Below, one piece after another: positions 6,447 through 30,766 of a DNA stretch of 64,000 nt. The notes under the pieces are model-generated. The model made no database searches. It was not told the DNA's origin and worked only from the letters and a program-made list of their open reading frames with translations. Source of the stretch: Candidatus Omnitrophota bacterium. Its GTDB lineage: Bacteria > Omnitrophota > Gorgyraeia > B26-G9. The stretch is from NCBI GenBank assembly GCA_043826565.1, contig JBDRPX010000023.1:5758-69757 (forward strand). The letters run 5' to 3'. Position numbers and translations under genes: made by a program. How positions within the stretch are numbered: the stretch's first letter is position 1; each line of letters begins with the position of its first letter.

Positions 6447-8544
6447 ATCGATAATTCATTGCTTCTACCAATCTTTCCGAATCAAATAAGCATTCTCCTG
6501 CCTCCAAAGCCTTTACTATATTTACTAGTTCCCTGGCTGTAACATAATGCAGCTTAAATTTCTCCCCATCATTGCAATGCTCTTCTAATAGATTATATAA
6601 GTTATCTAACCCTCCTTCTAAAAGAAATCTCATGTTTTCTTCTTGACATCCATGCGCGTGTAATTTAATAAACCGAAAATTAGACTCCCCTTCAACATGT
6701 ATGTTTGTATCTATCCATAATTTGAGCCTATGCAGATCGACTGGATCTGTATATCCAATGTTACCGCTTTCAATTGTAGGGCAAAATGCCCCCTTTCTTT
6801 TTTTCCAATTAATTGCCAATGGCCCTTGGATCATCAACAATCTTTTCTTTTCCTTTGTATTAGTCTTAACATTTACCCCCCAGTTATGAGACTTCGGCAA
6901 ATCAGGAATATCTTTAGCGTAATAAATACTATTTACTTTTGCAGTCTGGGTATCACTTGGCACAGACGGAAGAGTGAAATCCGCATAGCAACCCGTATCA
7001 CGCAAAACTTCCAGCTCATTGTTTACCCCGCAGAATTTACCATCTTTTCTAGAGTTTGCAAGCGCCCAATCCCCATGAATAAACCCATATGCAATTTCTC
7101 CTGTTTGCTTGCATCTTGAAAGCATCTTATGATCCCTATTAAGTTTTTCTTTGAAATTTATAAGCTTTTCGGTAAGCATTTCTGGAGTATCATTATCATG
7201 ATGCAAATGAATTTCCACCTCCCCATACCCCTTATTGCAAATATTCCCTAATCCCTCCAATAATTCCGGTGTGTATTCTTCTTCAGGGAAAAAAAATGTA
7301 TATTTGGGGCTCTTTCCTAAAGAATCCTTATGTCTGGAAGCAATATCAGGATAATTTGCTACCCACTGATTAACTCTTTCAAGCCCCTCACTTTTGTTTA
7401 CTCCATTCCACAGAGGCTCAAAATGATCACAGATACAGACAAACAAGTATATAGGTTTTTTTCTGCAGTTTTTTGTAAATTTATTTAACAGTCTCTCAAA
7501 AGCATATCCGAGAAGCCAATATTGAGCGTATCTTATTGATTCGTTAAATTTAAACAGTAAGTTATATATACCCGCAACATGCAAAGCAAATAAAAACAAT
7601 GGCTCATGGTCAAAGCCTATTCTTCCAATTGCAAAATTGTCTACCTGAAAAGGATCATCTGCCGTAGTTACAGCAGATGAGAAACTAAGCTCTCTTACTA
7701 TTGTCTTAATATGATCGTTATAATTACCATTAGGATAGGCGAATGACTCAACTCTACATTTCAATTGCTCCTCAATAGTAGATTTAGATTTTAGAATTTC
7801 CCTTTTCACTTTATCTAGTGGAATTTTAGTTAAGATCGGATGTGTTTCAGTATGCGCCCCGAATTCTACTAATCCAGATTCATGCATTTCTTTAATCTCA
7901 TCCCAATTAAGCATCAGATCCTTGGATTGATTTTCACGATTAGCAGAAAGTAGTTGATCTATGATCTGCTTCAGGATTACTTCTTTCTTTTCCTCATTAA
8001 ATTTCTTCATTTCATTTGAAACGATCTTATAAAAATTAAGTTTTTCATTAAGTGTTGAAATTTTAAAACTCCGATCAAAGATTTCAGGGATCGCCACCTT
8101 AATGTTCTCTGTTTTAGTAAGAGCATGAATTAGTTTATCCGACCATAACATTTTACCTGATCCAATTGTTTCAGTAGTCAGATAAATTATTGCGGGAATT
8201 TTATATTTTTTTAAAATTGGGAATACATTAGAATGAATATTTTTATATCCGTCATCAAAAGTTAGAACAACCAAATTTGCAGACCTATCCTCAGGTCTTA
8301 TATTTAAACACTCTCCCAAAGAAACAAATTTATATTTTTTTAATAAAAACCTGATTTTTGCTTCAAATTCCTCCAGGGTAAGATGCCCCAGCCCCTGGAG
8401 AAATTCATAATAATCATCATCCTGGCTTATAATATTATGTGAAAACAATACCCTCGGAGGATTTTTAAAGATTTTACCAAAAATAAGCCTTACAAAATAA
8501 CCTAATCCGGAATAATAGATCAGTAAAAGCATTAAATTCTTCAA
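6418..8544 (-). CDS. Polysaccharide deacetylase (CE4 / NodB domain) with large C-terminal His-rich domain of unknown function
   Basis: 708 aa. The N-terminal half carries the CE4 motifs LTFDDGY (motif 1), GAHTETHP (motif 3) and FAYPNG. The C-terminal ~370 aa is rich in His/Asp motifs (CDHFEP, HLHHDND, HGDWA, HAHG) and has no obvious family assignment. Confidence 0.7.
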   Translation of the reverse strand: MKNLMLLLIYYSGLGYFVRLIFGKIFKNPPRVLFSHNIISQDDDYYEFLQGLGHLTLEEFEAKIRFLLKKYKFVSLGECLNIRPEDRSANLVVLTFDDGYKNIHSNVFPILKKYKIPAIIYLTTETIGSGKMLWSDKLIHALTKTENIKVAIPEIFDRSFKISTLNEKLNFYKIVSNEMKKFNEEKKEVILKQIIDQLLSANRENQSKDLMLNWDEIKEMHESGLVEFGAHTETHPILTKIPLDKVKREILKSKSTIEEQLKCRVESFAYPNGNYNDHIKTIVRELSFSSAVTTADDPFQVDNFAIGRIGFDHEPLFLFALHVAGIYNLLFKFNESIRYAQYWLLGYAFERLLNKFTKNCRKKPIYLFVCICDHFEPLWNGVNKSEGLERVNQWVANYPDIASRHKDSLGKSPKYTFFFPEEEYTPELLEGLGNICNKGYGEVEIHLHHDNDTPEMLTEKLINFKEKLNRDHKMLSRCKQTGEIAYGFIHGDWALANSRKDGKFCGVNNELEVLRDTGCYADFTLPSVPSDTQTAKVNSIYYAKDIPDLPKSHNWGVNVKTNTKEKKRLLMIQGPLAINWKKRKGAFCPTIESGNIGYTDPVDLHRLKLWIDTNIHVEGESNFRFIKLHAHGCQEENMRFLLEGGLDNLYNLLEEHCNDGEKFKLHYVTARELVNIVKALEAGECLFDSERLVEAMNYRYELKGVGNA

Positions 8545-8572: not shown

Positions 8573-9910
8573 TCATTCCTTAAAATCGAATTTTTTAATA
8601 ACCATTTTATTTTCATCCAGCGTGCCGATCCCCTGATTGCAGCATAATTCTAAATATTTTCTAAATGGCCCATCCATATTATCCGGATTATTAAGTTCTC
8701 GAACCAAGCCGCCCAAAGGATAAAGGATATTTTTAGCTCCGTAATAATCAAGCGCGACCGGGTCAGTGCTTACAATAACAGATCTTGTCCTGGCGGCAAG
8801 TTTTGGGTCTGTCCGGGAGGCAAATCCTACCCATTCTGCTGTTACAATATTCAGATCCGCTCTCCGTATTGTATTCATAAAAGTCCCCACTGCTCCGCCT
8901 AGTCCCGGAACACCAATACTATGAAAACTGCAATATCCTTCCGGTACCACATTCCCGCAGGTCATGTCGATAACACCTAGATAATTTTTTACCGAACTGG
9001 TAACTCCGGCAAAATCACTGTGATGGTTTAATCCGGCAAAATTAATAAACTTAACCGGCTGACTAGTATATTTCCCGTTTTTCCAGGCTCCGTTTTTAAA
9101 GTCTATCGTTATTCCGCTAAATCCCGAAGTAAAAACAGGGTAAGACATTTTTGTCTTTTTCCCTTTATATCTGTATTCAATATTCGTCCAAACATATCCA
9201 TCACCCTGTCGAGGATGAACTACTAACTTTCTTTCCCGATATCCTCTAAGCTTCTTAACTGCCTCCTTTATGGGTCGTAAAATTCTGGCTTTTAAAGTAT
9301 CATCTTTTCCAAAAGAACCACCACCTATCCAATGATATTTTGTTACATTAGCATGGCCTTTTTGTCGAAAGTATTTAATAAGTTCATTATAGTTAAACTC
9401 TCCGTTCCTCATCCGGGTATTCCATCCACGGATATTACAATTATTTTTTGGACCGAAACATTGATGATTTTCGGCAATAATTACTTCTCCGGTAAACCCC
9501 GGGATCGCCAGAACCAGCTCAATAAACGCCTTCATAGAATTAGTATTGGTCATCCCCTGGTTCCACCACTGGGCATTCGGTTTTAAAATAACAATATCAT
9601 TCTTCCCGATAATCTTCTCTATCCCGCCGATCATTTCTATAGCTTTAAAAGTATTCTGTTCCGGAGATCCGTTTTTCGCATGATAAATAATCGATTCACC
9701 GCCTTTAGACTTTTCGGAATTCGCCGTCATGTCTACTCCCGCAGATTTACTAAAAGTCTCATCTTGAGCCCGGCTTTTAGATATTTTTAATAGCCAAGCA
9801 ATACCTAAACAGCCGATAAAAGCCATTCCCAGCTTTTTAATCAATTCTCTTCTGGTCATCCGTTTAAACATCATTATCTCCCTCAAAGAAATACCAGTTT
9901 TCACAATCAA
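8573..9910 (-). CDS. Secreted protein with Tat-like signal (MTRRELIKKLGMAFIG...SRAQD), possibly DUF362 family
   Basis: 445 aa with a twin-arginine-like N-terminus and a hydrophobic core ending in AQD. The VILKPN motif resembles DUF362 proteins. The true start is probably an internal Met (~9865), because the first 15 codons overlap the upstream gene. Confidence 0.4.
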   Translation of the reverse strand: MIVKTGISLREIMMFKRMTRRELIKKLGMAFIGCLGIAWLLKISKSRAQDETFSKSAGVDMTANSEKSKGGESIIYHAKNGSPEQNTFKAIEMIGGIEKIIGKNDIVILKPNAQWWNQGMTNTNSMKAFIELVLAIPGFTGEVIIAENHQCFGPKNNCNIRGWNTRMRNGEFNYNELIKYFRQKGHANVTKYHWIGGGSFGKDDTLKARILRPIKEAVKKLRGYRERKLVVHPRQGDGYVWTNIEYRYKGKKTKMSYPVFTSGFSGITIDFKNGAWKNGKYTSQPVKFINFAGLNHHSDFAGVTSSVKNYLGVIDMTCGNVVPEGYCSFHSIGVPGLGGAVGTFMNTIRRADLNIVTAEWVGFASRTDPKLAARTRSVIVSTDPVALDYYGAKNILYPLGGLVRELNNPDNMDGPFRKYLELCCNQGIGTLDENKMVIKKFDFKE

Positions 9911-10907
9911 AAATTTCCTTTTTTACCAATCCCTCATGAGCAAAGACAAGAAATGGGTCATCGGCCTCTCTTAACCAATACCCTATTCTTTTTAATTGTT
10001 TTACTATTTTATTAGTCCCCATAAAACGGATGGCAACAGCCTTGGCATTTACACCTCGTGCATAAATTACAAATTTCCACATCAATGCTTCCCATGTTTT
10101 TTCATTTAAGGCCAATACGTCAACTATATGCATAGTACCATTTTCAAGGTAATACACTAAATAACCTTGAATTTCATTATTCTTCTCTATTGAAAATATT
10201 TTATATTCATTTGCTTGATAACTAAAATATCTCCAATTAAGGTATGCAGTTCCCCTCACCCCCATAATTTTGAACTGATGTTTAGTTTTCTCAAAAAAAG
10301 AATCAAATTTATTATCGAAAGATTCGTGAAATTTCATACTATAGCCGAGAAAATTTTTCGCAAAAGATTCCCTAAAACAAAGACATAAAAACACATCCAG
10401 AAATTTTGCTAGTGCTTTAGGCAATAGATCACCTTTTATCTTTTCCCTCAATTTATGTTCGGTTTTTAAAATTTTTACAAACCTGCAAAAATTGCCGATA
10501 TTTTGATAGCCCGCTTTCTCTAGTAATTTTTTTGAAGATTTATTCGGGATTCCATACAAAAAATTCATTCCTTCCTTAGCACTATTAGTTATAATAGTCT
10601 TTTGCAATTTTAAAGCCGGGCCGAAAACTCTATCCTCTTTATTAACCCCAAAATCACCTGCGACTCCAAAAGTAAATATTTTCCCAGAAACTTCGAACTC
10701 TCTTTTAAAAAGCGCACCTACTCCGGAAACTCTATTTGTATTAATTTCCTTTGCTATCCAAGCAGCAGCTTCTCCAAAAGGGCATTTCTTGTATTTCCAC
10801 TCAAATTTTTCCCTTAATACTTCAGAGTTGAAATTATTGTTTAATATTAATAAAATATCATCAACATCTCTCAGTAGATCTGCTTTTTCAATATAATATT
10901 TTTTCAT
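9864..10907 (-). CDS. GNAT-fold / FemAB-like acyltransferase (short relative of the PF13480-type proteins downstream)
   Basis: 347 aa. The C-terminal segment (NEIQGYLVYYLENGTMHIVDVLALNE...) is GNAT-like. It is the same size class as, and sits next to, the FemAB-like/ATP-grasp pairs. Confidence 0.4.
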   Translation of the reverse strand: MKKYYIEKADLLRDVDDILLILNNNFNSEVLREKFEWKYKKCPFGEAAAWIAKEINTNRVSGVGALFKREFEVSGKIFTFGVAGDFGVNKEDRVFGPALKLQKTIITNSAKEGMNFLYGIPNKSSKKLLEKAGYQNIGNFCRFVKILKTEHKLREKIKGDLLPKALAKFLDVFLCLCFRESFAKNFLGYSMKFHESFDNKFDSFFEKTKHQFKIMGVRGTAYLNWRYFSYQANEYKIFSIEKNNEIQGYLVYYLENGTMHIVDVLALNEKTWEALMWKFVIYARGVNAKAVAIRFMGTNKIVKQLKRIGYWLREADDPFLVFAHEGLVKKEIFDCENWYFFEGDNDV

Positions 10908-10985
10908 TTAAATTCACCTACTAATAATTTTGAACTTATTGAGCATTTTCTTCAGAAATTTTCACAAAAACAGACAACCTGCTAA

Positions 10986-12185
10986 TTAATGAGTTTTCCT
11001 TATTTTAGTAATTACTTTACAAATACAACTGTAGCAAAAAAATAAAAAAGGTTTTATGTCACAAAAGCGAAAATAAACAAAATCCTTTTTAAAGAATATT
11101 ATTTTTTTAATAATCCCCCAATTAAGCGTTTTTTTAAAACCGCTTTTATATAAATTGTTTACTAATCCGTCCTCTTCCAACCAAAGGATACGTCCTTTAC
11201 AGCTTGGTTCCTCTATATATCCCTGTCCGATCATTTCATAATAATATGCTAGAGGAATATTCACCCCGCCTGCGGCAGCAATAGAAGACTGCATATCTAC
11301 ACGCCCGGCAGTTGGCTCAATAATTAAAAATTTCCCGCTTTTTTGATGCCTTTTAAACTCTACAGACCCTATCCCCTGATACCCTACTTTATCAAACAAC
11401 TCTATTGCCTTAGATCTTACTATTTCTGAATAATAATTCTCTGCTATACATGTATTACCGATTTGCGGCAACCATTGCATTAATTTTCTTCCGGTAAAGC
11501 TCAATCTACATCTTGAATTTTTATCATAATACATCAAACAAAAAAATAGATCTGAATCTTCCCCTGGAACCCACTCCTGTATTATTAAAGATACTTTGCA
11601 CTCAATTCCATTTCTTTCAATTATCTCAATCAATTCTTCTTTAGAATTTACGTAATGAGCTTTATTCCCCTGATTATACTTATCCCATTCAAACGTTCTG
11701 TAGCTAGGTTTTACTACACATGGATAAGTAATATTATTAATAAAATCTAAATTCCTTCCCTCATCAAGTATAAAAGATTTAGGAATATTAAATTTTTCTT
11801 TTTGGGCAAATTCAGCAAATAATTCTTTTTTAGAAAAACAATCCATGATTGATCTTGCAGGCATATTAAAAACATAATACTTCTCTAATATATCTTCATT
11901 TTCAGAAACAATTTTTGCATTTTTGTCCCCGGTCGTAAAAAGAACCGGTTTATTTTTCTCTTGAACTGCAATATCTATTAAGGCTTCCACAACCAAATCT
12001 TGTTTATTTATATCCTCGCAAGTTCTCACCTGCCAATATTTACTATGCTTTCCCGGAAAGTCAGAGTCTGAATCCAAGCAGATTACCTTAATCCCTTTTT
12101 GGCCTAACCCCCTCGCTATGCCCAATCCCGCAGGATTTAACCCAATAATAACAGCACTGTGTTGAGAAAATATTTTATCTTTCAT
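10986..12185 (-). CDS. ATP-grasp domain protein (copy 1)
   Basis: 399 aa. Motifs CVVKPSY, IIQEWVPGEDS, FTGRKLMQWLP, GSVEFKR and IIEPTAGR fit the ATP-grasp carboxylate-amine ligase fold. About 45-50% identical by eye to the paralog at 13463-14668. Confidence 0.6.
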   Translation of the reverse strand: MKDKIFSQHSAVIIGLNPAGLGIARGLGQKGIKVICLDSDSDFPGKHSKYWQVRTCEDINKQDLVVEALIDIAVQEKNKPVLFTTGDKNAKIVSENEDILEKYYVFNMPARSIMDCFSKKELFAEFAQKEKFNIPKSFILDEGRNLDFINNITYPCVVKPSYRTFEWDKYNQGNKAHYVNSKEELIEIIERNGIECKVSLIIQEWVPGEDSDLFFCLMYYDKNSRCRLSFTGRKLMQWLPQIGNTCIAENYYSEIVRSKAIELFDKVGYQGIGSVEFKRHQKSGKFLIIEPTAGRVDMQSSIAAAGGVNIPLAYYYEMIGQGYIEEPSCKGRILWLEEDGLVNNLYKSGFKKTLNWGIIKKIIFFKKDFVYFRFCDIKPFLFFCYSCICKVITKIRKTH

Positions 12186-13380
12186 GTAAACTTTTCTTCG
12201 TTTTTTTTATCCTTTTAATATCTTCTTTTTTTATTATTATTTTCCTTAATTTTTTTAAGAAATTATAAATTCCTGCCTTTTTAATTATTCCCTTTAAAAT
12301 CATTTTCCAAATAATCCCAAATCCAAGCACTTTAGATGAAACTGATAGGCTTTTTATGTCATTGCGAAAGATTACTAATCTATAATACAATGGGCACTTT
12401 TTTGTCCAAAGCTGTTTCCACTCATAAAATGGCCCTAAAAAATCATACCTGGTTATTCGACCTGTCTTAAAAATATATTCCAATGTATTTTTTCTAAGCA
12501 ATATTCCCGGGGAATACTTTACGAATTCCGGGTCATAGCCGATTTTCATAGCAAATATTTCATCCCTGAACTCAATTGCTATTTCAAATGCGATCTTACG
12601 ATTATTTAGCTCCAGTAAATATATCCTTAACCAATTATTTTTATATGCTGTTTTTAAATAATCAAAATAAAAATTCTTTATATTTTCCTTGCTTATTACG
12701 GCTGTCCCGGCATCCCCTTTCCAAGCCAAAGACTCAAGCCTAAAACAATCATTAATTATTGCTTCAATATTTTCAGCTTCACTAATAACACTAAATTTTA
12801 ATTCTCCAAGTTTTGCTATTTTCTTTTCTTTTCTTTTTACCGCTCTGGTTAATTCGCGGCTGCGCGCATTCCAATAGGCCTCCCACGTTTCATTAACATC
12901 AATAAACGGGGAACTAAAACTTTCTTCTCCACTAAAAAGCGAATAGTTCTTCCTATGGCCTACTATTGAATGCGCTCTATTTAAAAATTGTGAACTCTGC
13001 GGCAAAGCGTCAAAATCAATATGTATAATTTTATTTTGTTCCATATAATCCAACAGGCACTTTATTACTTCATCCATTTCCTTTCCTGCAACTATATCAA
13101 AAAAAGGAGTATGGTTATTTTGCATCGCGCTTAAGTAAAAATAGTTTTCTCCTAAAAAATCAGCTTTTCTCTTTATCAGAGGTGTAATGCCCTGAATTCT
13201 ACCCTTATCGCTCATAACAAGGATCAATACATCGACTGACTTGCCGAAATTTTTCCACCAATTAAAGAAAAACTCATAAGTTAAAAATGGAGAATGACTT
13301 TCGTTTCTAGAGTGAAAATCATTCCAAACATCTTCAGTTTTTTTAAAATCTTCTAAATTTTTAATTTCCTGGATTATCAT
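12175..13380 (-). CDS. FemAB-like / CelD-like GNAT acyltransferase (PF13480-type, copy 1)
   Basis: 401 aa. The N-terminus (WNDFHSRNESHSPFLTYEFFFNWWKNFGK...VLILVMSDKGRIQGITPLIKRK) is typical of BioF2-like/FemAB-related proteins of PEP-CTERM EPS loci. A paralog lies at 14680-15789. Confidence 0.65.
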   Translation of the reverse strand: MIIQEIKNLEDFKKTEDVWNDFHSRNESHSPFLTYEFFFNWWKNFGKSVDVLILVMSDKGRIQGITPLIKRKADFLGENYFYLSAMQNNHTPFFDIVAGKEMDEVIKCLLDYMEQNKIIHIDFDALPQSSQFLNRAHSIVGHRKNYSLFSGEESFSSPFIDVNETWEAYWNARSRELTRAVKRKEKKIAKLGELKFSVISEAENIEAIINDCFRLESLAWKGDAGTAVISKENIKNFYFDYLKTAYKNNWLRIYLLELNNRKIAFEIAIEFRDEIFAMKIGYDPEFVKYSPGILLRKNTLEYIFKTGRITRYDFLGPFYEWKQLWTKKCPLYYRLVIFRNDIKSLSVSSKVLGFGIIWKMILKGIIKKAGIYNFLKKLRKIIIKKEDIKRIKKTKKSLHER

Positions 13381-13462
13381 TAAAAACCTATTATTTAATT
13401 TTAAATTTTCTATATGTATCCTTCCTAAAAGGAAGTACCAATACCTGAGCCTTTACTTTCTT

Positions 13463-14668
13463 TTACTGTACCTTTTGCAACCATTTTATTTTTTTAGCCC
13501 CTAAACACAGCGCCTGATAAATCATAATTAAAAAAGGCTTAATATCAAATATATTAAAATAAGCAAAGCCTTTTTTAAGAAAAATAGCCTTCCTGAAAAT
13601 TTTATTTTTTCTAAAATCCTTTATTCCATGTTTATAAATATATTTAAGGCAATAATCTTCATTTATCCATATAACCTTTTTTCTCTTGTGGTTCCCCGCA
13701 TAACTACTTTCTCCGATCATCTCGCAGTAATATTCAAAAGGCATATTTATCCCTTGAAGCAAAGCAATCGCTGACTGCAAATTTGACCGACCTACCGTAG
13801 GCTCTGTAATTTTAAACTCCCCGGTTCTATCATCTTTTTTAAACTCAGCAGAACCCAGCCCTCTATATTGCACTTTATCAAATAATTCCACGCTCATTTT
13901 TTTAATAATATCTAAATCAACACTTTCCGCTACACAAGTGCTTCCTGTGCCTGGCAACCATTGCAAAAGTTTTCTCCCGGTGAAATATGTTTTTAATTTT
14001 GAATCTGCGCCGTAGTACATTAGGCAAAAATAAACATTTGAATCATCGCCTGGTATCCACTCCTGCACAATTAAATCATTGCAGTATTTCCTCTTTTCCT
14101 TTAGCAAAACAAACAATTCTTCCTTTTTATTCACGAAATACGCTTTATTCCCCTCAAACCTGTGTTCCCAAGCATGCGTCTTATAACTGGGTTTCACAAT
14201 ACAAGGAAACTGAAAATCATTGATAATCTTTGAGAGTGATTCTATCTCCTTAAAAATAACACTCCTTGGAACTTTTAATTTTTCTTTCTCAGCAAACTTA
14301 GCAAATTTTGTTTTTTCCATTAACATTTCAACAATATCTGCCTCTGGCAAACTAAATTTATAGTATTTTAATAATTCTTTCCTGTTTTTTGAAGCAATCT
14401 GCACATTTTCATCCCCTGTTAAAAAAAGAACTGGCTTCTTGCTTTCCCTTTTTGCGAAACTAATTAGCGTCTCAACTAAAAATTTATCATCATTTATATC
14501 CTGGCAATTTTCAACTTGGCAAAGTCGCGTATAAGCGCCCGGGATATTTCGGTCTGACTCTACCCCAATCACCTTAACCCCCTTATTAACTAAGGAACGG
14601 ATGATCCCAAGACTAGTCGGATACAAACCAATAACTACCGCTTTAAAATCGCTTGCTATTTTCTTCAT
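13463..14668 (-). CDS. ATP-grasp domain protein (copy 2)
   Basis: 401 aa. Motifs CIVKPSY, IVQEWIPGDDS, FTGRKLLQWLP, GSAEFKK and ITEPTVGR match. It is a divergent paralog of 10986-12185. Confidence 0.6.
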   Translation of the reverse strand: MKKIASDFKAVVIGLYPTSLGIIRSLVNKGVKVIGVESDRNIPGAYTRLCQVENCQDINDDKFLVETLISFAKRESKKPVLFLTGDENVQIASKNRKELLKYYKFSLPEADIVEMLMEKTKFAKFAEKEKLKVPRSVIFKEIESLSKIINDFQFPCIVKPSYKTHAWEHRFEGNKAYFVNKKEELFVLLKEKRKYCNDLIVQEWIPGDDSNVYFCLMYYGADSKLKTYFTGRKLLQWLPGTGSTCVAESVDLDIIKKMSVELFDKVQYRGLGSAEFKKDDRTGEFKITEPTVGRSNLQSAIALLQGINMPFEYYCEMIGESSYAGNHKRKKVIWINEDYCLKYIYKHGIKDFRKNKIFRKAIFLKKGFAYFNIFDIKPFLIMIYQALCLGAKKIKWLQKVQ

Positions 14669-14679
14669 TGGAGATATCT

Positions 14680-15789
14680 TTACCTTTTAATTTTTTCTTT
14701 AATTTTCCGAAAAATACAAAAAAGAGCATATCTAAGCTTGTTTTTTAAAATTCTAATTGTTATTATATCCCGTGTTACAGTTGCCCATTCCTTACAATGC
14801 CTTTTATTCTCTCCTTTTAAAAAATCATATTCTGCAGCATTTCCCTCAACCGCTTTTTGTATTGAATACCCTCTTAATATATTTCCAACCCCTAACTTAG
14901 GGTAGCACTCCAGATCAAGTCCAGCCTGATAAAACAACACTTTCCCCTTATAAATGAGATCATAAAAAGCAGCAACTGGCTTTTTATTTACGTCCAGGAA
15001 GATAAGCCTTACTTGTTTTTTATCAAATAAGTTTCTCATAACTTTCCCATGAAACTGCTTAAATTTCTCACTTCTAAAACACCCTTGTTCCCCCTCAGCA
15101 CTCCATCTTTTTTCATGAAGATCAATAAAAATAGAAAACGCCATAGATAAGTCTTCTTTTTTTTCTATAGTTCTCACCTCTACTTGGGCCATACTACTTA
15201 ACCGTTTTCTATCTCGCTTAAGTTTATATCTAAAATTACTGCTTAATCCAGTTACTAATTCATCCCATGTCTTGGGAAGTTCAATATAATAAGCAACCCC
15301 ATCTTTTTCACATTTATTACTTACTCCTGAATTCGTTAGCTGTTGTCTCAAAATCACAGTATTTATATTTTCAGCAAGTAACTCTTTTAAAACTATTTCA
15401 TCCCATGTTTTATTCACTTTAAAATAATCTACTAAACATCCTATAACTTCTTTCTCTTTACCCTTCTTTATAATAAAATTTAAATACTCTGAACATATTT
15501 CATCTCGTTCTTCTTCACCAGAAGCGATAAATTCTAATCTATTATAATTTAAAAGCCTAAAATAACAAATTTTCCTCAAAAGAAGCGGTGCAATACCTAT
15601 GATTTCTTCATTTTCTTTGACTAAAAGAATAAAAAGTTCCCTCTTTTCCTTAAAAACTTCCCACCAGGAATAAAGCCATTCCCATGTTAGAAAAATATTA
15701 TCGTTGTTGCTTTGGCTTAAAAGTTCATTCCATTGATCTTTTAGGCCTATAAAACCATCATCTGTTGTTATCTTATGAATTTTAACCAT
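14680..15789 (-). CDS. FemAB-like / CelD-like GNAT acyltransferase (PF13480-type, copy 2)
   Basis: 369 aa. WNELLSQSNNDNIFLTWEWLYSWWEVFKEKRELFILLVKENEEIIGIAPLLLRK aligns with copy 1 at roughly 35% identity. Confidence 0.65.
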   Translation of the reverse strand: MVKIHKITTDDGFIGLKDQWNELLSQSNNDNIFLTWEWLYSWWEVFKEKRELFILLVKENEEIIGIAPLLLRKICYFRLLNYNRLEFIASGEEERDEICSEYLNFIIKKGKEKEVIGCLVDYFKVNKTWDEIVLKELLAENINTVILRQQLTNSGVSNKCEKDGVAYYIELPKTWDELVTGLSSNFRYKLKRDRKRLSSMAQVEVRTIEKKEDLSMAFSIFIDLHEKRWSAEGEQGCFRSEKFKQFHGKVMRNLFDKKQVRLIFLDVNKKPVAAFYDLIYKGKVLFYQAGLDLECYPKLGVGNILRGYSIQKAVEGNAAEYDFLKGENKRHCKEWATVTRDIITIRILKNKLRYALFCIFRKIKEKIKR

Positions 15790-15923
15790 ACCTTACCTTA
15801 TTACTTTTTGAAAATTTATAAACGTCCCATTTTTAACGATTTGTCACATTTTACCAATTAAAATAATATATTATAAGTTGAATAAACTACTCTATATGAT
15901 TCTAATTAAATATGCTGACTACA

Positions 15924-17948
15924 CTACAAACTCCCTTCAAACATCATTATATTAATATTCTCACTATCTTTCCGAAGAGCCTGGCATTCTTTAAGACGAT
16001 TGTCAAAATTTCTGATAAAATGATTATCCAGCAATAAAGTACTGATAATTCCCACGATAGCCCGGTTATGATGCGCGCTAATAAGGCTGCCTTTTGCATT
16101 TTTACATTTATTTACTAGTTTAGCTACTGCCTGCGGGTCAAAATAACCGGTTTCAGAAATATTTCTTTCCGACAAAATCTCCTCAAGATAAGCCACTGCA
16201 TCTGCGCTCTTATTGTTTGGGGAGAAAAAGCTTAAACTATCCGGAGCCCGGTACCCCTGTTTTTTCCGGTTAATTATCGGTTCCGGCACATAACTCGCGG
16301 CGATTTTTTTAAGAATATATTTTTCATTCATAACTTTCAGCCTTAATGCCGGAGGAATTTTTGCGCAAAACTCCATTACCCGGTGATCCAAGAACGGAAA
16401 TCTTCCTTCTACGGAATTAGCCATCATCATCCTGTCTCCCTGAGATGAAAGCAAATAACCGGAAAGCAAAGTTTGAACTTCGAGATATTGAGCTTGGGAT
16501 AGACTATTCCATTTTTTAAATTCATCCGGGATCGTCTTGCTCAATCCGGCAATACAGTCAAGCCCGGAGATATCCGCTTTTAACTGCGAAGAAAAAAACT
16601 GTTTTATTTGGGATGTTGCCATCCAGCGGGGAATATGAGAATAGCAAAATTTATCCGTTTCCGGCAAATGCACATTATAAAACGCTTCCAGAAAAAGAGA
16701 TGCTTTTTTTGGCCAATTCGGCAAATAATGATAAAGTTTTTTCAACAGCAAAGGCCGGAGTTTCGATTCAGGATTTTGCGCCCAGAACCGGCGGATCTTC
16801 ATTTCCCGGAACAGATCATAGCCGGCCAATACCTCATCCGCTCCCTCTCCGGTCAAAACTACTTTAATATTGTTTTCCCTGACCAATTTAGATAATAACA
16901 TTAACGGAGCCGGAGCTGTCCGCATTATCGGCTTTTCCGTATGCCAGAGTATATCCGGAATGATCTTCCCTATATCAGAATATTGACAAGTTACCTGGCG
17001 ATGATCAGTATGCAGCTGCTGGAGCATTTGCTGTTGATAACCACTCTCATCATAATCTTTATCCGCAAAACTTACGGAAAAAGTCTTCAGGTCATTATTA
17101 AAGTGTTTTTTCACTATAGATGTGATCAAGGAAGAATCCAGGCCGCCGCTTAAATATGACGCTACCGGCACATCCGCGCGCAAACGGATTCGCGTGGAAT
17201 CTTTAAGCAATTCCAATAACTCTTCGGCATACTGCTGCTCACTATATTTTTTGTTCTGCGTTGATCCTTCAGGAAAGCCCCAATCCCAATACCGTTCAAC
17301 ATATATATTACCTTCTTTGGCGATCATATAATGTGCCGGAGGCAGCTCCTGTATATTTTTGAATACTGTCTGCGGCGGTATAGTTGTCCAGAATGTAAAA
17401 ATTTCATCCAGTCCCCGGGGATCAAGCTCCCGCGGCACCCGGTTATCCGCAAAAATTGCTTTGATCTCTGAGGCAAAGATCAAAGATCCGTCGATAATTG
17501 TATAAAAAAGCGGACGTATCCCCACCCGGTCACGCGCCATAAACAGCTGTCTTTTTTTAGTGTCCCATATCGCCAAAGCAAATTGACCGTTTAATTCCTG
17601 CAAACATGCCGGGCCTTTTTCCTCATATAAATGGACAATAACTTCCGTATCTGTATTTGTATAAAAACAGTGTCCTTTCTTTATTAACTGTTCCCTTAAT
17701 TCCGGATAGTTAAAAATTTCACCGTTATAGACTATCCATATTGATCTATCTTCATTATGGATCGGCTGTTGTCCTCCGGCAATATCAATGATGCTCAAAC
17801 GGGCATGAGCTAACCCTACCTTACTATCCTTATATATACCGCATTCATCCGGACCCCGATGATGCATAAGTAAGATCATCTTTTTCAGAACATCAGTATC
17901 AATATTATGATCTTTGGTAAGATTTAAATTTCCGCTTATTCCGCACAT
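15924..17948 (-). CDS. Asparagine synthase (glutamine-hydrolysing) family amidotransferase (AsnB-like)
   Basis: 674 aa. N-terminal MCGISG supplies the class-II glutamine amidotransferase catalytic Cys2. The PP-loop SYLSGGLDSS lies in the synthetase domain. Confidence 0.9.
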   Translation of the reverse strand: MCGISGNLNLTKDHNIDTDVLKKMILLMHHRGPDECGIYKDSKVGLAHARLSIIDIAGGQQPIHNEDRSIWIVYNGEIFNYPELREQLIKKGHCFYTNTDTEVIVHLYEEKGPACLQELNGQFALAIWDTKKRQLFMARDRVGIRPLFYTIIDGSLIFASEIKAIFADNRVPRELDPRGLDEIFTFWTTIPPQTVFKNIQELPPAHYMIAKEGNIYVERYWDWGFPEGSTQNKKYSEQQYAEELLELLKDSTRIRLRADVPVASYLSGGLDSSLITSIVKKHFNNDLKTFSVSFADKDYDESGYQQQMLQQLHTDHRQVTCQYSDIGKIIPDILWHTEKPIMRTAPAPLMLLSKLVRENNIKVVLTGEGADEVLAGYDLFREMKIRRFWAQNPESKLRPLLLKKLYHYLPNWPKKASLFLEAFYNVHLPETDKFCYSHIPRWMATSQIKQFFSSQLKADISGLDCIAGLSKTIPDEFKKWNSLSQAQYLEVQTLLSGYLLSSQGDRMMMANSVEGRFPFLDHRVMEFCAKIPPALRLKVMNEKYILKKIAASYVPEPIINRKKQGYRAPDSLSFFSPNNKSADAVAYLEEILSERNISETGYFDPQAVAKLVNKCKNAKGSLISAHHNRAIVGIISTLLLDNHFIRNFDNRLKECQALRKDSENINIMMFEGSL

Positions 17949-17998
17949 GTGTTCCTTAGAGTTACGCGTTAACGCGTTTTCGCGTTTGCGTGTTTAAT
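17949..17998. repeat. GC-rich repeat flanking four-helix-bundle gene 1 (contains perfect palindrome ACGCGTTAACGCGT)
   Basis: gagttACGCGTTAACGCGTtttcgcgtttgcgtg is an island of CGCG units in an AT-rich genome. It is imperfectly complementary to 18385-18432 and encodes the C-terminal tail of the four-helix-bundle ORF. Confidence 0.6.
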
Positions 17999-18381
17999 TT
18001 TGCACTTTTTAGATATTTTTTTAAAGCTGTTATCATTCTTCTAGTTTTTTCCGACATTTCATATAAAGAATCAAACTCTGGCTTTTTAATATATTTCTGA
18101 TCTAGAGCAACATATAAATTACACTGAACTTCTGAGGCAGATCTTCTCGCATAAGTTAAAAACCTTATAAACTCCGCATTAGAATCGCTATCAAAACCTT
18201 CTGCAATATTATTCATTATTGAAACTGCAGCTCTCTGGATTTGTCCTGTCAAACCAAAATCTTTGCTAAAATCGCCAGTTTTACTTATATTATAAATTTC
18301 TTTTACTAATATACGCGCTTCTTGCCAAACATTAAGGTCTTCAAATCTCTTTACCCCCATTATAAACTCTCCAACACGCAA
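17962..18381 (-). CDS. Four helix bundle protein (TIGR02436 family; formerly '23S rRNA intervening sequence protein'), copy 1
   Basis: Family hallmarks are FEDLNVWQEA, SIMNNIAEGF and FLTYARRSASEVQCNLYVA. The likely true start is the internal MGVKRFEDL (~18360), giving about 132 aa. Confidence 0.8.
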   Translation of the reverse strand: MRVGEFIMGVKRFEDLNVWQEARILVKEIYNISKTGDFSKDFGLTGQIQRAAVSIMNNIAEGFDSDSNAEFIRFLTYARRSASEVQCNLYVALDQKYIKKPEFDSLYEMSEKTRRMITALKKYLKSAKLNTQTRKRVNA

Positions 18382-19466: not shown

Positions 19467-19877
19467 TCATTTTAGATCCTTAGCTACTGTTTTGCGAAAA
19501 TTATATAGTTTTTTGCCTAGTTTCTCTAACTCTTGAATCCAATTTTTATATTTGATCTCATTACTAAAAGACTTTGTATCAAATAATAATTCTAAATGTT
19601 CCTTTGTTTCGTCACAAGAAGCTATTGCATAAGTCAAATAGCGTATAAACTCTTGTTGATACGATTTTCTCCCAAACCCCTCAACTATAGTAGCAACTAT
19701 TGATTTGGATGATCTTCTAATTTGACTACCTTGCTCATACATCTCAAATTTAGGTAAATCCTGCAGCGTCATCTCATGCATCTTTACCGCTAAATCATGA
19801 GCCAATCTATAAATTTCTAAGTCTTTATAACTTTGCATTTTTCCTGCGTCCTGAGTCCTGTAGCCTGAGGCTTTCAT
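19467..19877 (-). CDS. Four helix bundle protein (TIGR02436 family), copy 2
   Basis: 136 aa. YKDLEIYRLAHDLAVKMH...VATIVEGFGRKSYQQEFIRYLTYAIASCDE is the second common sequence type of this family. Confidence 0.8.
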   Translation of the reverse strand: MKASGYRTQDAGKMQSYKDLEIYRLAHDLAVKMHEMTLQDLPKFEMYEQGSQIRRSSKSIVATIVEGFGRKSYQQEFIRYLTYAIASCDETKEHLELLFDTKSFSNEIKYKNWIQELEKLGKKLYNFRKTVAKDLK

Positions 19878-19925
19878 ACCTTTCAGCTTGCATCCTGCGG
19901 CTTGCGGCCTGCAGCCAGGAGAGCT
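19855..19925. repeat. GC-rich repeat flanking four-helix-bundle gene 2 (right arm; overlaps the 3' end of the ligase gene)
   Basis: cctgagtcctgtagcctgagg...cagcttgcatcctgcggcttgcggcctgcagcc. Repeated cctg/gcctg units encode the last ~10 codons (AAGRKPQDAS) of the AMP-ligase. Confidence 0.55.
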
Positions 19926-21454
19926 TTCAACTGCTCTCGCTTTATTTTTCCACTCGCCGTTTTTGGCAGAGATTGCACCATCGCAACTTTTTTCGGCATT
20001 TTAAAAGCGGCTAGGTTCTTTTTACAAAAAATAAGAATATCTTTTTCCGTAACATTCACATCGTCAAGCACAACAAAAAGCTTTATCGCTTCGCCAAGTA
20101 TTTCATCAGGGATACCGACTACCGCACACTCAGCAATTCCTGGCAATTGAGAAACAACTTCTTCTAATTCTAATGGACTGATCCTGTTGGCACCGCTTTT
20201 AATCATATCCTTTTTACGGCTAATCAGATAAATAAACCCATCCGCGTCAATACGCGCAAGATCTCCGGTAAACAAATCCCCCTCACGTAAAACCCCCTTG
20301 GTTTGTTCCGGATCATCCCAATATCCCTGCATAATATTTTTTCCGCGAGCAACAATTTCGCCGATTTCTCCGACTTCCACCGGTTCTCCCGTTTCTCTAA
20401 GCACATCAAGCTGTACTCCGGGAATAGCTTTGCCGATAGAACCAGCTTTTTCCGGAAAATCATCAGGAGAAAGAAAACTCAAACGAGCAGAAGCTTCTGT
20501 CTGCCCATACATCACATAAAACTTTATCTCCGGGATTATTTGCCGGAACTCTTTTATCAAGCCCGCAGACATCGCTCCTCCGGCCTGGGTAACATAACGC
20601 AATTTAGGAAATTGATATTTTCGTATTGCTGATTTCTTTAAAAATATATTAAAATGAGTCGGGACTCCGGCAAAACCGGTAACTTCTTCCGTAGCCATCG
20701 TATCTAAAATCACATTAGGAAATACAAAACGGTTGTCGATAATAAGAGTTCCCCCGGCTCTTATATGCGTAGTTAATAAAGAATTGCCATAGGAATAGTA
20801 AAACGGCAATACGACCATAATTTTGTCTTCTGCTGTAAGCCTCAGATAGCTGATAATAGACTCTGCATTTTCCGCTAAATTTTCATGCGAAAGCATTACT
20901 CCCTTAGGTTTGCCTGTAGTCCCGGAGGTATATATAATCATCGCCAGATCGCTGGCGCTTAGCTGAGGGCTGATGGCTAATGGCTCATAGTTTTCACTAT
21001 AATTAATATCATCTATTTGTAATGCAATAATATCCTGATTGATTAAAACTAAAGCTTCTTCTACAACTTTTTTGTGTTTATTGTCAGTAACTAGTACCCT
21101 AGGGGTGCAATCAGTCAAAAGCAATGCTAACTCTCGGGAAACAAGCTGACTATTTAAAGCTACAACACCCCCCCCGATTTTTAAAATCCCAAAGTAGGCC
21201 ACCAGATAATCAATACTATTATCCAAAAACAAAACTACCCGGTCTCCTTTAGATACCCCCTGGTCTCTTAAATACATAGCCAAGACATCAGACCATGCGC
21301 TAAGCTGCGCATAAGTACAGCTTGATTTCTGATGAACTGCCGCGATTTTATCCGGATATCGCTGAGTACTTTCTCGTAAAAATCCATGAATCATCATATT
21401 AACACCAGACTCCGAGTTATGAATTATTGATTTTAGATTGTATAAAAACCTCAA
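19883..21454 (-). CDS. AMP-dependent synthetase/ligase (acyl- or aminoacyl-AMP forming; adenylation enzyme)
   Basis: 523 aa. The AMP-binding signature IIYTSGTTGKPKGV is present. The C-terminal PKTASGKIKR is the conserved A10 lysine motif. Confidence 0.85.
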   Translation of the reverse strand: MRFLYNLKSIIHNSESGVNMMIHGFLRESTQRYPDKIAAVHQKSSCTYAQLSAWSDVLAMYLRDQGVSKGDRVVLFLDNSIDYLVAYFGILKIGGGVVALNSQLVSRELALLLTDCTPRVLVTDNKHKKVVEEALVLINQDIIALQIDDINYSENYEPLAISPQLSASDLAMIIYTSGTTGKPKGVMLSHENLAENAESIISYLRLTAEDKIMVVLPFYYSYGNSLLTTHIRAGGTLIIDNRFVFPNVILDTMATEEVTGFAGVPTHFNIFLKKSAIRKYQFPKLRYVTQAGGAMSAGLIKEFRQIIPEIKFYVMYGQTEASARLSFLSPDDFPEKAGSIGKAIPGVQLDVLRETGEPVEVGEIGEIVARGKNIMQGYWDDPEQTKGVLREGDLFTGDLARIDADGFIYLISRKKDMIKSGANRISPLELEEVVSQLPGIAECAVVGIPDEILGEAIKLFVVLDDVNVTEKDILIFCKKNLAAFKMPKKVAMVQSLPKTASGKIKREQLKALLAAGRKPQDAS

Positions 21455-21671
21455 TATTCTTCAGCGAATCAAGATTATCCGGTGTCAATTCTTCATCCTC
21501 AACTTTGATTGTGAAGGTTTCCTGTATAAAATCAACGAGTTCCATAATCCCCGTAGAATCAATAATCCCCTGTTCTAAGAAAGAATCCTCATCGTTTATA
21601 CTTCTATCCTCCGCGCCCATTAAAAAACTACTCTTTATAAATTGCCTAACTTTGTCTTTAACATCCATCAC
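21417..21671 (-). CDS. Acyl/aminoacyl carrier protein (DltC/ACP-like)
   Basis: 84 aa. GIIDSTGIMELVDFIQETF has a Ser in a helix-II-like context (phosphopantetheine site). It overlaps the ligase start by 38 nt, which indicates translational coupling. Confidence 0.6.
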   Translation of the reverse strand: MMDVKDKVRQFIKSSFLMGAEDRSINDEDSFLEQGIIDSTGIMELVDFIQETFTIKVEDEELTPDNLDSLKNIEVFIQSKINNS

Positions 21672-21695: not shown

Positions 21696-22166
21696 CTAGT
21701 CATCAATCACAAATCTTTCATCCGCATTCTCTTCATGTCTAATCTCATCAATCTGATGCTTTTTCCCCGGCCCGGCAAAAAGCTGGTTAGGATAGTTCAG
21801 AACCAGTCCGGGAGCCTTGCCGATATTTTTGTAAGCATGGACAACACCCGGAGGAACCAGGGCGATTACAGGCTCATCTTCGGCAAACACAATTGTTGTT
21901 TTCAACCTAAATGTTTTGCTGTCCTTTCTATTATCCCAAAGAAATAACTTAAACGAAGAAGTGCCTAAAAAACAAAAATAATCAGTTTGATATGTATGTT
22001 CATGCGGCCCCCGCACAACATTCTGATGAGTCATAGACAGATACGACATAACCGGATATATATCCTTAGCCATCTCATCATGACGAAAAATCTCAAAAAG
22101 CCATCCTCGTTCATCGGTAAATTTCTTTACCTTTTTTATCACTACCCCATCAATTCCAACTTCCAT
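21696..22166 (-). CDS. RmlC-like cupin (dTDP-4-dehydrorhamnose 3,5-epimerase family / WxcM-like sugar epimerase)
   Basis: 156 aa. VIKKVKKFTDERGWLFEIFRHDE resembles the RmlC N-terminal substrate-binding motif (F.DERGFF.E.F). The size fits the short cupin epimerases/isomerases. Confidence 0.6.
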   Translation of the reverse strand: MEVGIDGVVIKKVKKFTDERGWLFEIFRHDEMAKDIYPVMSYLSMTHQNVVRGPHEHTYQTDYFCFLGTSSFKLFLWDNRKDSKTFRLKTTIVFAEDEPVIALVPPGVVHAYKNIGKAPGLVLNYPNQLFAGPGKKHQIDEIRHEENADERFVIDD

Positions 22167-24303: not shown

Positions 24304-24666
24304 TTAATTTGCTTTTAAATATCTAATAAAACCACTTATTAATTTTCTAGTCTCTTCTGTTTGCAAATAAATCTCTTGAAACAATTCTTTATCTACATAA
24401 TTAAGATCTAAAGCTATATACATAATGCATTGCACTTCTGAACATGACCTTTTGGAGTATGAAAGAAATCTACAAAACTCTGTTTTGCTTGAACTATCAA
24501 ACCCCTCTGCTATATTATTCATTATTGACACAGAAGCCCTTTGAATCTGATCTCTTAATCCCCAATCCCTTGCAAATTCTTTTTGAGAAGTTATGTTGTA
24601 TATCTTTTTGTTCAGTTGCCTAGCCATTTTCCAGGATTCAATGTCTTCAAATCTATTTATTTTCAT
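24304..24666 (-). CDS. Four helix bundle protein (TIGR02436 family), copy 3
   Basis: 120 aa. FEDIESWKMARQL, SIMNNIAEGF and FLSYSKRSCSEVQCIMYIA match the family. Confidence 0.8.
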   Translation of the reverse strand: MKINRFEDIESWKMARQLNKKIYNITSQKEFARDWGLRDQIQRASVSIMNNIAEGFDSSSKTEFCRFLSYSKRSCSEVQCIMYIALDLNYVDKELFQEIYLQTEETRKLISGFIRYLKAN

Positions 24667-30748: not shown

Positions 30749-30766
30749 TTATATTACTCCTTTTTT

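Follow-up and report, generated by a model that had tools for sequence, protein, structure and literature searches.

A doubled set of ATP-grasp and Fem-type genes as a candidate cassette for amino-acid decoration of an exopolysaccharide in Candidatus Omnitrophota

Introduction

Amino-acid and peptide substituents of polysaccharides, uronic acid amides and N-aminoacyl amino sugars among them, have been known chemically for decades, and to our knowledge almost none of the enzymes which install them is known. In the NodB/NodA system an amino sugar is de-N-acetylated and then re-N-acylated. In the present work a gene cassette was analysed which may attach amino acids to a polysaccharide. It lies in a 64-kilobase (kb) stretch of DNA, called the window throughout, from a metagenome-assembled genome (MAG) labelled Candidatus Omnitrophota, and its central part consists of two ATP-grasp genes (A1 and A2) alternating with two genes of Fem-type transferases (F1 and F2).

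The closest described systems are of three kinds. In the synthesis of peptidoglycan side chains the Lys amine is acylated by an ATP-grasp D-Asp ligase by way of beta-aspartyl phosphate, Fem transferases add L-amino acids from aminoacyl-tRNA, and the asparagine synthase AsnH amidates the added D-Asp (PMC4155827). In Campylobacter jejuni, Cj1438C, the C-terminal domain of Cj1438, amidates polymer-bound glucuronate in an ATP-dependent manner after glycosyl transfer (PMC11800397); it is the sole enzyme for such substituents documented in the literature searched. The third is a prediction from comparative genomics, as summarised in a later paper, according to which operon-linked ATP-grasp and GNAT-type ligases perform successive ligations followed by GNAT capping, O-antigen and teichuronopeptide being covered (Iyer et al. 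2009 via Burroughs et al. 2015; PMC4431377). A literature search found no experimental study of the A1/A2 family, and nothing relevant was found on ATP-grasp proteins together with capsular polysaccharide, amide or glucuronate, with O-antigen gene clusters or with exosortases, or on FemAB together with polysaccharide.

Results

Composition and proposed function of the cassette

The cassette comprises seven genes, all on the minus strand, in the order AsnB, F2, A2, F1, A1, GNAT and Tat/DUF362 (Tat, twin-arginine translocation), and it is part of a Wzx/Wzy operon with TviB/TviC-like enzymes. The order and the coordinates of the seven open reading frames (ORFs) agree with those of an initial annotation of this DNA, in which the 708-aa polysaccharide deacetylase and the APH-type kinase directly downstream, as well as an 84-aa acyl-carrier protein (ACP) at 21417-21671, upstream of the AMP-forming acyl ligase (AMP-ligase), were absent. 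The NCBI annotation describes A2, F2 and F1 (100% matches) merely as 'hypothetical protein' or 'GNAT family N-acetyltransferase'. The cassette and the two genes downstream of it are listed below; this list and that of the rest of the operon run in the direction of transcription (aa, amino acids; HMM, hidden Markov model).

15924-17948, minus: AsnB-type glutamine amidotransferase, 674 aa; TIGR01536 534 bits (cutoff 267), Asn_synthase 306 bits, GATase_7
14680-15789, minus: F2, Fem-type tandem-GNAT transferase, 369 aa; PF13480 Acetyltransf_6 79 bits (cutoff 22)
13463-14668, minus: A2, ATP-grasp carboxylate-amine ligase, 401 aa; ATP-grasp fold and catalytic residues
12175-13380, minus: F1, divergent Fem-type tandem-GNAT transferase, 401 aa; PF13480 77 bits (cutoff 22)
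10986-12185, minus: A1, ATP-grasp carboxylate-amine ligase, 399 aa, paralogue of A2; 473 bits to the ATP-grasp family HMM
9864-10907, minus: Eis-like GNAT, 347 aa; Acetyltransf_9 24 bits, Acetyltransf_17 22 bits, each slightly below cutoff
8573-9910, minus: Tat-signal DUF362 protein, 445 aa; DUF362 32 bits, RRELIKK motif
6418-8544, minus: polysaccharide deacetylase with C-terminal GH57-like domain, 708 aa; Polysacc_deac_1 90 bits, Glyco_hydro_57 37 bits
4962-6446, minus: APH-family kinase, 494 aa; PF01636 55 bits

We propose, with moderate confidence, that the cassette may be a toolkit like that of peptidoglycan side chains, which would make amide-linked amino-acid or short-peptide substituents on the polysaccharide, a sugar amine being the likeliest acceptor. 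Amide-linked substituents are proposed because peptidoglycan side-chain synthesis uses these same enzyme classes, and the sugar amine is preferred as acceptor because of the deacetylase fusions and adjacencies found in the ATP-grasp family. Established directly are the folds of the proteins and the families to which they belong, their conserved catalytic residues and domain fusions, the context of their genes and the history of the paralogues. Amide-bond decoration of a polysaccharide by co-duplicated gene pairs had been suggested in the initial annotation; its general reading stands, together with the enzyme classes (by the predicted structures) and the location in polysaccharide loci, while the co-duplication of the pairs had to be given up.

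In the proposed mechanism the membrane-anchored deacetylase (6418-8544) would first de-N-acetylate an amino sugar within the lipid-linked repeat unit. At the cytoplasmic face, successive amide bonds would then be built on the freed amine by the Fem-type enzymes and the ATP-grasps, each ATP-grasp activating the carboxylate of a free amino acid or organic acid as an acyl phosphate. The product would be an N-linked amino acid or a short peptide of at most 4 residues; its terminal amine may be capped by the Eis-like GNAT, and a carboxylate still free, on C-6 of the uronate or on the side chain, would be amidated by AsnB. We infer all the substrates, the order of the steps and the donor of the Fem-type enzymes (aminoacyl-tRNA, acyl-CoA or acyl-ACP). 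In a more specific version, which we consider rather unlikely, F2, A2, F1 and A1 would act alternately and processively as an assembly line independent of the ribosome and of nonribosomal peptide synthetases, and would place a defined oligopeptide of up to 4 residues on a de-N-acetylated amino-uronic sugar.

The ATP-grasp ligases

The assignment of A1 and A2 to the ATP-grasp enzymes was borne out by the predicted structure, a three-domain ATP-grasp fold (predicted local distance difference test score, pLDDT, 93.7), and by the conserved catalytic residues. Four residues, K159, Q202, E289 and R294, did not vary among 43 homologues, and E203 and E275 hardly did; A1 has these same residues, so that the catalytic Lys, Glu and Arg are retained in A1 and A2 alike. 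The two proteins are 46% identical over 394 residues, within the 45-50% given in the initial annotation. A2 resembles soluble L-amino-acid ligases structurally, and a phmmer search of the sequences of solved structures gave only a marginal carbamoyl-phosphate synthetase (CPSase) match for A2 and no match for F1 or F2. There is no dedicated Pfam or NCBIfam model for the A1/A2 family. Ten homologues carry JGI's own label 'D-aspartate ligase', a putative assignment. The C-terminus of both A1 and A2 is a basic helix of moderate hydrophobicity. All 19-residue hydropathy windows of A1, A2, F1 and F2 stayed under the threshold of 1.6; since no strong membrane segment was thus present, the four proteins are probably cytoplasmic.

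The Fem-type transferases

F1 and F2 both passed the PF13480 model, as expected from their earlier description as FemAB-like, PF13480-type proteins. Their identity had been estimated at about 35%; the measured value is 22% (E 3e-23), or 20% by hhalign. The AlphaFold2 (AF2) model of F2 (pLDDT 94.7) has the FemX-like tandem-GNAT fold. Its best match in the PDB is FemX (E 1e-12, template modelling (TM) score 0.63-0.69), followed by FemA, the aminoacyl-tRNA peptide synthases Sbb17/Sba18 and the C-terminal domain of MprF. All the full-length structural matches with a TM score above 0.5 are aminoacyl-tRNA transferases, and VipF occurs among the weaker ones. The F2-family profile aligned with the whole of F1 (probability 99.8%, 340 columns, 20% identity), and F1 keeps D322 and the aromatic-Lys motif of the Fem-like family. 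F2 has many relatives at 40-52% identity and gave no NCBIfam match at E<=0.01. F1 is close to an orphan, with 5 homologues, the best 23% identical, in a word-indexed search of 5.8 billion proteins; either its evolution is rapid or its lineage has been sampled poorly. It gave a below-cutoff match to the BspF crotonyltransferase model. The locus of the nearest F1 homologue (P0196, locus L087) has an uninformative gene context.

Different histories of the two couples

In a neighbour-joining tree of the ATP-grasps (100 bootstraps) A1, A2, P0002, P0003 (Elusimicrobiota) and P0004 formed one clade with 98% bootstrap, within which the branching was unresolved. A1 and A2 are therefore sister-level paralogues from a lineage-level duplication; sister tandem ATP-grasps were also seen in the Zixibacteria locus L082. 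F1 and F2 are old, distinct subfamilies. The nearest F1 relative among the fetched loci (L004:5655-6770) belongs to another Omnitrophota locus, L004, in which it stands beside an F2 orthologue and a distant ATP-grasp. Co-duplication of the pairs, for which a phylogenetic check had been suggested, is rejected on these grounds, namely the 98% clade of A1 and A2 against the 22% identity of F1 and F2 and the presence of both distinct subfamilies in L004. The ATP-grasps and the Fem-likes differ in history, the couples were assembled, and speaking of two duplicated pairs is misleading.

The gene order of related loci suggests how the present arrangement arose. In L088 a 702-aa deacetylase/GH57 protein (L088:11149-13257) comes directly after an F2 orthologue of 50% identity, and an APH and then Wzx come next. 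F2 orthologues (48-52% identity) adjoin deacetylases, which follow them in L005, L006 and L088. Judged by the order in L088, the segment A2-F1-A1-GNAT-DUF362 resembles an insertion between F2 and its conserved partners, and F2 belongs with a deacetylase-kinase-flippase core.

An assembly duplication or a set of decayed pseudogenes could in principle give such a doubled arrangement. The paralogues are, however, only 46% and 22% identical, there are no long DNA repeats (the sole repeat between the pairs is 45 nucleotides (nt) long, with 80% identity), and the four ORFs are full length with intact catalytic motifs and confident predicted folds. The two pairs are thus far from near-identical, and the probability of an artefact is negligible.

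The ATP-grasp family in other genomes

When 1.84 billion cluster representatives were scanned in full with phmmer, the relatives numbered 6084 at E<=1e-3, 3091 at E<=1e-10 and 602 at E<=1e-30. One peptide pattern retrieved 303 relatives among genome species representatives, from Pseudomonadota, Planctomycetota, Gemmatimonadota, Nitrospirota, Elusimicrobiota and other phyla. The family is widespread and located mostly in polysaccharide loci, its function being a predicted one. The ATP-grasp was single-copy in 79 of 80 fetched loci. Gene context was quantified on those loci, 57 in number, for which 17 kb or more had been fetched (flanks of about 10 kb around the ATP-grasp where the contig permits): GT4 was present in 68%, AsnB in 42%, a Fem-like gene in 40%, a deacetylase in 39%, a UDP-sugar dehydrogenase in 18% and an AMP-ligase in 18%. 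The commonest immediate neighbours were GT4, a Wzx-like protein, an alpha/alpha-toroid protein and DegT aminotransferase, the last accounting for 9 of 51 downstream neighbours and occurring also in L089. A Fem-like/FemAB gene stood immediately beside the ATP-grasp in about 9 loci. In the closest relatives (L001, L004, L007, L011, L092) a small GNAT, the ATP-grasp, one or two Fem-like genes and a deacetylase recur together, and the deacetylase adjoins or overlaps the ATP-grasp in L001, L011, L058 and L092.

Domain fusions were surveyed in the top 150 representatives, 30 of which are at least 480 aa long. Three proteins combine the ATP-grasp with a deacetylase (P0207, which is 40% identical to A2, P0241 and P0267), two with a full Fem-like domain (P0290 and P0319) and one with a GNAT (P0254); there are four tandem ATP-grasp proteins and at least five fusions with a glycosyltransferase (GT4 or GT2). 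P0290 and P0319 indicate that the ATP-grasp/Fem-like couple is a functional unit, and the tandem proteins indicate that two successive ATP-grasp steps are common. Taken together, the fusions are a physical link of the ATP-grasp with polysaccharide assembly, with de-N-acetylation and with Fem-type transferases.

Several other arrangements were observed. P0202 (1589 aa) and P0303 (1139 aa) are giant polypeptides, of the composition GT4-ATP-grasp-ATP-grasp-GT4 and GT4-ATP-grasp-GT4, respectively. A metagenomic polysaccharide locus (L002:8896-15237) holds three ATP-grasps of the family in about 5 kb, beside a PEP-mutase-family gene and a 2-hydroxyacid dehydrogenase; these neighbours hint at phosphonate or organic-acid substituents. 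Many Pseudomonadota loci (Betaproteobacteria/Xanthomonadales: L019, L030, L031, L046, L056, L081 and others) show a trio of a Wzx-like protein (PF13440), the ATP-grasp and the alpha/alpha-toroid protein. The toroid protein gave weak SQHop_cyclase_C, GH127 and Pec_lyase matches and is fused to the ATP-grasp in P0218 (800 aa). P0005, an ATP-grasp of 42% identity, lies beside PKD-domain proteins on a 6.4-kb contig of a MAG labelled Candidatus Hodarchaeota (Asgard; L091), a placement which could be due to horizontal transfer or to a binning error. The gene context of P0005 was uninformative, as was that of P0042 (L003).

Points weighing against the proposed function

Decoration of a sugar amine has to be weighed against a number of points. 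Neither Fem-type protein passed the Pfam FemAB model PF02388 (F1 15.8 bits, cutoff 24; F2 unmatched), and PF13480 also takes in acyl-CoA-dependent enzymes, with which the BspF match of F1 would be compatible. The ATP-grasp fold is compatible with a carboxylate on either partner, and carboxylate acceptors would also be on hand in an operon that appears to make uronic acids and has AsnB. The deacetylase might face the periplasm like PgaB/IcaB, and its product would then be beyond the ATP-dependent enzymes. Fisher tests within the ATP-grasp loci (Fem-like versus AMP-ligase, deacetylase, AsnB and TviB) gave no significant association (best p = 0.07), and the co-occurrence of the ATP-grasp with Fem-like or deacetylase genes is a count over loci with the ATP-grasp only. 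Some of the metagenomic fusions could be gene-calling errors. The chemistry, both for this organism and for the whole ATP-grasp family, is a predicted one.

The CoA-dependent members of PF13480 lead to an alternative without any peptide decoration, in which F1, F2 and the GNAT would be ordinary acyl-CoA N- or O-acyltransferases and the ATP-grasps would make a soluble precursor (a dipeptide or a small metabolite) or perform an unrelated ligation. The BspF-like match of F1, the occurrence of VipF among the structural matches of F2 and the likeness of A2 to soluble L-amino-acid ligases would be in agreement with it. It is difficult to reconcile with the fusion of the ATP-grasp to glycosyltransferases, deacetylases and Fem-like domains and with the consistent location of the family within Wzx/Wzy or GT4-rich loci, and we regard it as very unlikely.

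The polysaccharide operon

Every ORF examined across 1071-29278 lies on the minus strand. The genes of this operon outside the first list are the following.

28430-29278, minus: Wza-like export protein; Poly_export/SLBB
27105-28382, minus: Wzz/GNVR chain-length regulator; Wzz/GNVR model
26116-26901, minus: P-loop kinase; AAA_31
24721-26046, minus: TviB-like UDP-GlcNAc 6-dehydrogenase; NF011729 500 bits
24304-24666, minus: four-helix-bundle gene; 23S_rRNA_IVP / TIGR02436
23252-24205, minus: TviC-like 4-epimerase; NF011728 251 bits
22254-23255, minus: GT2
21696-22166, minus: RmlC-like cupin
21417-21671, minus: acyl/peptidyl carrier protein, 84 aa; PP-binding 23.5 bits (cutoff 20.8), IDS motif
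19883-21454, minus: AMP-forming acyl ligase, 523 aa; AMP-binding 291 bits, TIGR03098-like 399 bits (below cutoff 592)
19467-19877, minus: four-helix-bundle gene; 23S_rRNA_IVP / TIGR02436
18409-19407, minus: WbuX-like PP-loop N-acetyl-sugar amidotransferase, 332 aa; TIGR03573 149.5 bits (below cutoff 203)
17962-18381, minus: four-helix-bundle gene; 23S_rRNA_IVP / TIGR02436
3494-4969, minus: Wzx flippase; Polysacc_synt 38 bits
2199-3497, minus: Wzy polymerase; Wzy_C 57.5 bits
1071-2195, minus: GT4; 263 bits against the TIGR03088 cutoff of 409

A flippase, a polymerase, a chain-length regulator with kinase and an outer export protein share this operon, as in a Wzx/Wzy-dependent pathway, and the presence of Wzy and Wzx means that the pathway makes a lipid-linked repeat unit. 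The intergenic gaps are short throughout: F2 and A2 are 11 nt apart, the start of A1 overlaps the end of F1 by 11 nt, and the A2-F1 gap is 82 nt. Terminator-like sites were not in excess (16 versus 12.7 in shuffled sequence, standard deviation (sd) 3.3), promoter-like sites, which are consensus matches only, were in modest excess (85 versus 67.0, sd 7.8), and neither marked a break in the operon. In the distal half (GT4 to F2) the guanine-cytosine (GC) content is 31-35%, except for DUF362 (39.5%); in the proximal half it is 38-41% in most genes, the carrier protein, GT2 and four-helix-bundle genes being lower. Such a GC mosaic is what variable polysaccharide regions usually show. It is plausible, at a moderate level of confidence, that the segment 4962-21671 serves for 'decoration' and forms the variable half of an operon for a surface polysaccharide of the Wzx/Wzy type. 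Three paralogous four-helix-bundle genes (17962-18381, 19467-19877 and 24304-24666; 123, 93 and 114 bits) are scattered among the biosynthetic genes.

The uronic-acid-forming dehydrogenase reported earlier for this operon is indeed present as the TviB-like gene, accompanied by the TviC-like epimerase in the same strand run; the two enzymes are predicted to supply a 2-acetamido-uronic acid (GlcNAcA or GalNAcA) for the repeat unit. The initial annotation had placed the amino-acid amide on the uronate carboxyl. According to that model A1 and A2 would work on GlcNAcA or GalNAcA residues while the repeat unit is still growing: they would activate the C-6 carboxylate and couple it to two different amino acids or amino alcohols, a function similar to that of Cj1438C. 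The substituents would be extended or modified by the Fem-likes, and AsnB would amidate other uronates. The uronate supply by the TviB- and TviC-like genes agrees with this, and so do the AsnB-type genes found within about 10 kb of the ATP-grasp in 42% of the loci, which suggest carboxylate-rich polymers, and the glycosyltransferase-ATP-grasp fusions, which mirror the architecture of Cj1438. Amino-acid amides of GalA are known chemically (PMC4663550), and Cj1438C itself acts on a polymer-bound uronate. Membership of A1 and A2 in the Cj1438C family was, however, rejected: neither protein matched PF14305 (TupA-like ATP-grasp) in the Pfam scan, whereas Cj1438C scores 130 bits, and hhalign gave a probability of 0.2% between the family profile and Cj1438C, so that only the superfamily is shared. 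Besides, a UDP-sugar 6-dehydrogenase is found within 10 kb in just 18% of the related loci, and the deacetylase fusions and overlaps, together with the DegT neighbours, indicate amine-bearing sugars as the partner. An amide on the uronate carboxyl is therefore a viable though less likely reading, its only characterised enzyme being unrelated and the deacetylase fusions and adjacencies favouring a sugar amine at least equally.

The carrier protein and the AMP-ligase suggest a different alternative, a carrier-tethered assembly following the butirosin BtrI/BtrJ/BtrH logic, in which BtrJ is an ATP-grasp working on an ACP-bound substrate. Here the AMP-ligase would load an acid on the 84-aa ACP, A1 and A2 would extend it by amide bonds, and a Fem-like protein or the GNAT would transfer the acyl or peptidyl group to the de-N-acetylated sugar amine. 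The ACP and the AMP-ligase share the operon with the cassette, the ACP-ligase pair is shared with the Elusimicrobiota locus L001, and the set of ACP, ligase, PP-loop, Fem-like and ATP-grasp genes is syntenic there. A Fem-like gene occurs in 7 of 10 related loci with AMP-ligase against 16 of 47 without it, but the association is not significant (p = 0.07). Since an AMP-ligase is found within 10 kb in only 18% of the ATP-grasp loci, the family needs no carrier protein in general; the structural neighbours of F2 are tRNA-dependent enzymes, and the window has no pyridoxal phosphate (PLP) decarboxylase or thioesterase. We consider a carrier-tethered route unlikely.

Other genes of the cassette and its neighbourhood

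For the acceptor preferred here, the sugar amine, the deacetylase is the key neighbour, as it is predicted to expose the amine. It has a single N-terminal hydrophobic segment, and its cytoplasmic orientation is inferred solely from the positive-inside pattern and the ATP-grasp-deacetylase fusions. Its C-terminal extension of about 400 aa is conserved, with a weak GH57-like match, and the architecture of about 700 aa is kept in L088 (720 bits). An APH follows the deacetylase in L088 and is also found in the ATP-grasp/deacetylase locus L092; the deacetylase-kinase pair may form a separate module.

The AsnB-type assignment of the initial annotation was confirmed well above the TIGR01536 cutoff, and the protein is predicted to amidate a carboxylate, either on the sugar itself or on an amino acid attached to it. 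The shorter GNAT-like gene described earlier corresponds to the weak Eis-like GNAT at 9864-10907, a possible N-capping acetyltransferase. Small GNATs adjoin the ATP-grasp in L001, L004 and L007, and one is fused to it in P0254. This 347-aa protein was considered as a third Fem-like protein and rejected, being unrelated to F1, F2 and the F2 profile. The Tat-signal protein at 8573-9910 was likewise recovered, with the twin-arginine motif RRELIKK, a hydrophobic segment at residues 23-41 and a DUF362 domain; it is predicted to be periplasmic, and no homologue of it was found among the related loci fetched. With the start as listed, it overlaps the GNAT gene by 47 nt, and the true start is probably downstream, since the twin-arginine motif comes after later Met codons.

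The WbuX-like PP-loop gene follows the ACP-ligase pair both in the window and in L001 (L001:2117-4095, two PP-loop genes in tandem). A WbuY/WbuZ-type glutaminase partner was not seen among the window genes scanned. The WbuX-like enzyme may use a different route to an amidino or amide group.

Beyond the polysaccharide operon a second cluster is found on the minus strand at 30179-49001. It carries Idi, Dxs, a GT2, a PMT-like glycosyltransferase, an EryCIII-like GT1, a B12-binding radical SAM protein, a second radical SAM protein, a PEP-synthase-like protein, a CrtC-like lipocalin, an amine-oxidase/desaturase-like flavoprotein, a Wzx-like transporter and a UbiA prenyltransferase. The cluster looks like an isoprenoid or carotenoid glycolipid pathway.

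Discussion

What is new in this locus is the ATP-grasp family without a model, its fusion partners and the doubled, alternating layout. Fem-like, AsnB and deacetylase genes belong to the usual inventory of exosortase-type loci. The family is a concrete, testable candidate for amino-acid decoration, and its single-polypeptide fusions would be handy for expression. For the window a heavily amide-decorated GlcNAcA/GalNAcA polymer is predicted, made by an uncultured Omnitrophota bacterium. If the assembly-line version were true, Omnitrophota, a phylum with unusual cell envelopes, would have a peptidoglycan-like 'glycopeptide' exopolysaccharide, and the ATP-grasp family would represent the long-missing enzymes attaching amino acids to bacterial O-antigens and capsules. 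The cassette is a good enzymology lead more than a surprise.

Comparison with known systems

Like Cj1438 of C. jejuni, the relatives of A1 and A2 are presumed ATP-dependent amide formers encoded in polysaccharide loci, some of them fused to a glycosyltransferase. Cj1438C differs in belonging to another ATP-grasp family (PF14305), in using serinol-phosphate or ethanolamine-phosphate as amine donors and in lacking a Fem-type partner. The cassette had been described earlier as not being a standard described module. This holds for the A1/A2 family, which is without a Pfam or NCBIfam model, but not for linked ATP-grasp/GNAT ligases of surface polymers, which had been noted by comparative genomics (PMC4431377). 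As summarised there, the prediction of Iyer et al. is generic, and the A1/A2 family, the deacetylase and Fem-like fusions and the alternating doubled layout go beyond it.

The window also resembles the XrtA/PEP-CTERM exopolysaccharide loci, having AsnB, Fem-like, AMP-ligase, GT4 and deacetylase genes, the counterparts of which are the TIGR03108 amidotransferase, the TIGR03019 FemAB-related protein, the TIGR03098 acyl-CoA ligase, the TIGR03088 glycosyltransferase and the PEP-CTERM-locus deacetylase. The PEP-CTERM-specific curated cutoffs were not reached in the window (AsnB 469 versus 817 in the TIGR03108 check, ligase 399 versus 592, GT4 263 versus 409). The Elusimicrobiota locus L001 carries the exosortase EpsH and EpsI; phmmer searches with these L001 sequences against all ORFs of the window gave no match at E<=1, where a divergent exosortase would escape and the contig runs about 6 kb further. 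Many of the ATP-grasp loci are from Betaproteobacteria, which typically possess XrtA/PEP-CTERM-type systems, and we know of no description of an ATP-grasp as a component of such a system.

The adjacency and fusion of a polysaccharide-deacetylase-family enzyme with an N-acylating enzyme recall the NodB/NodA pair, the acylating enzymes here being of the ATP-grasp and Fem types and not NodA. The nearest likeness is to the peptidoglycan side-chain toolkit (AslA/Aslfm, Fem and AsnH), in which the same three cytoplasmic classes would act on a glycan precursor before export (PMC4155827); A1 and A2 are likened to Aslfm by enzyme class and fold. In contrast to that toolkit, the window genes belong to an exopolysaccharide operon of the Wzx/Wzy type, a polysaccharide deacetylase accompanies them, there is no stem peptide containing Lys, F1 and F2 are PF13480 and not PF02388 FemAB proteins, and the enzymes are doubled and alternate. 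If the proposed function is true, the ATP-grasp, Fem and AsnB enzymes of peptidoglycan side chains would have been redeployed onto exopolysaccharides.

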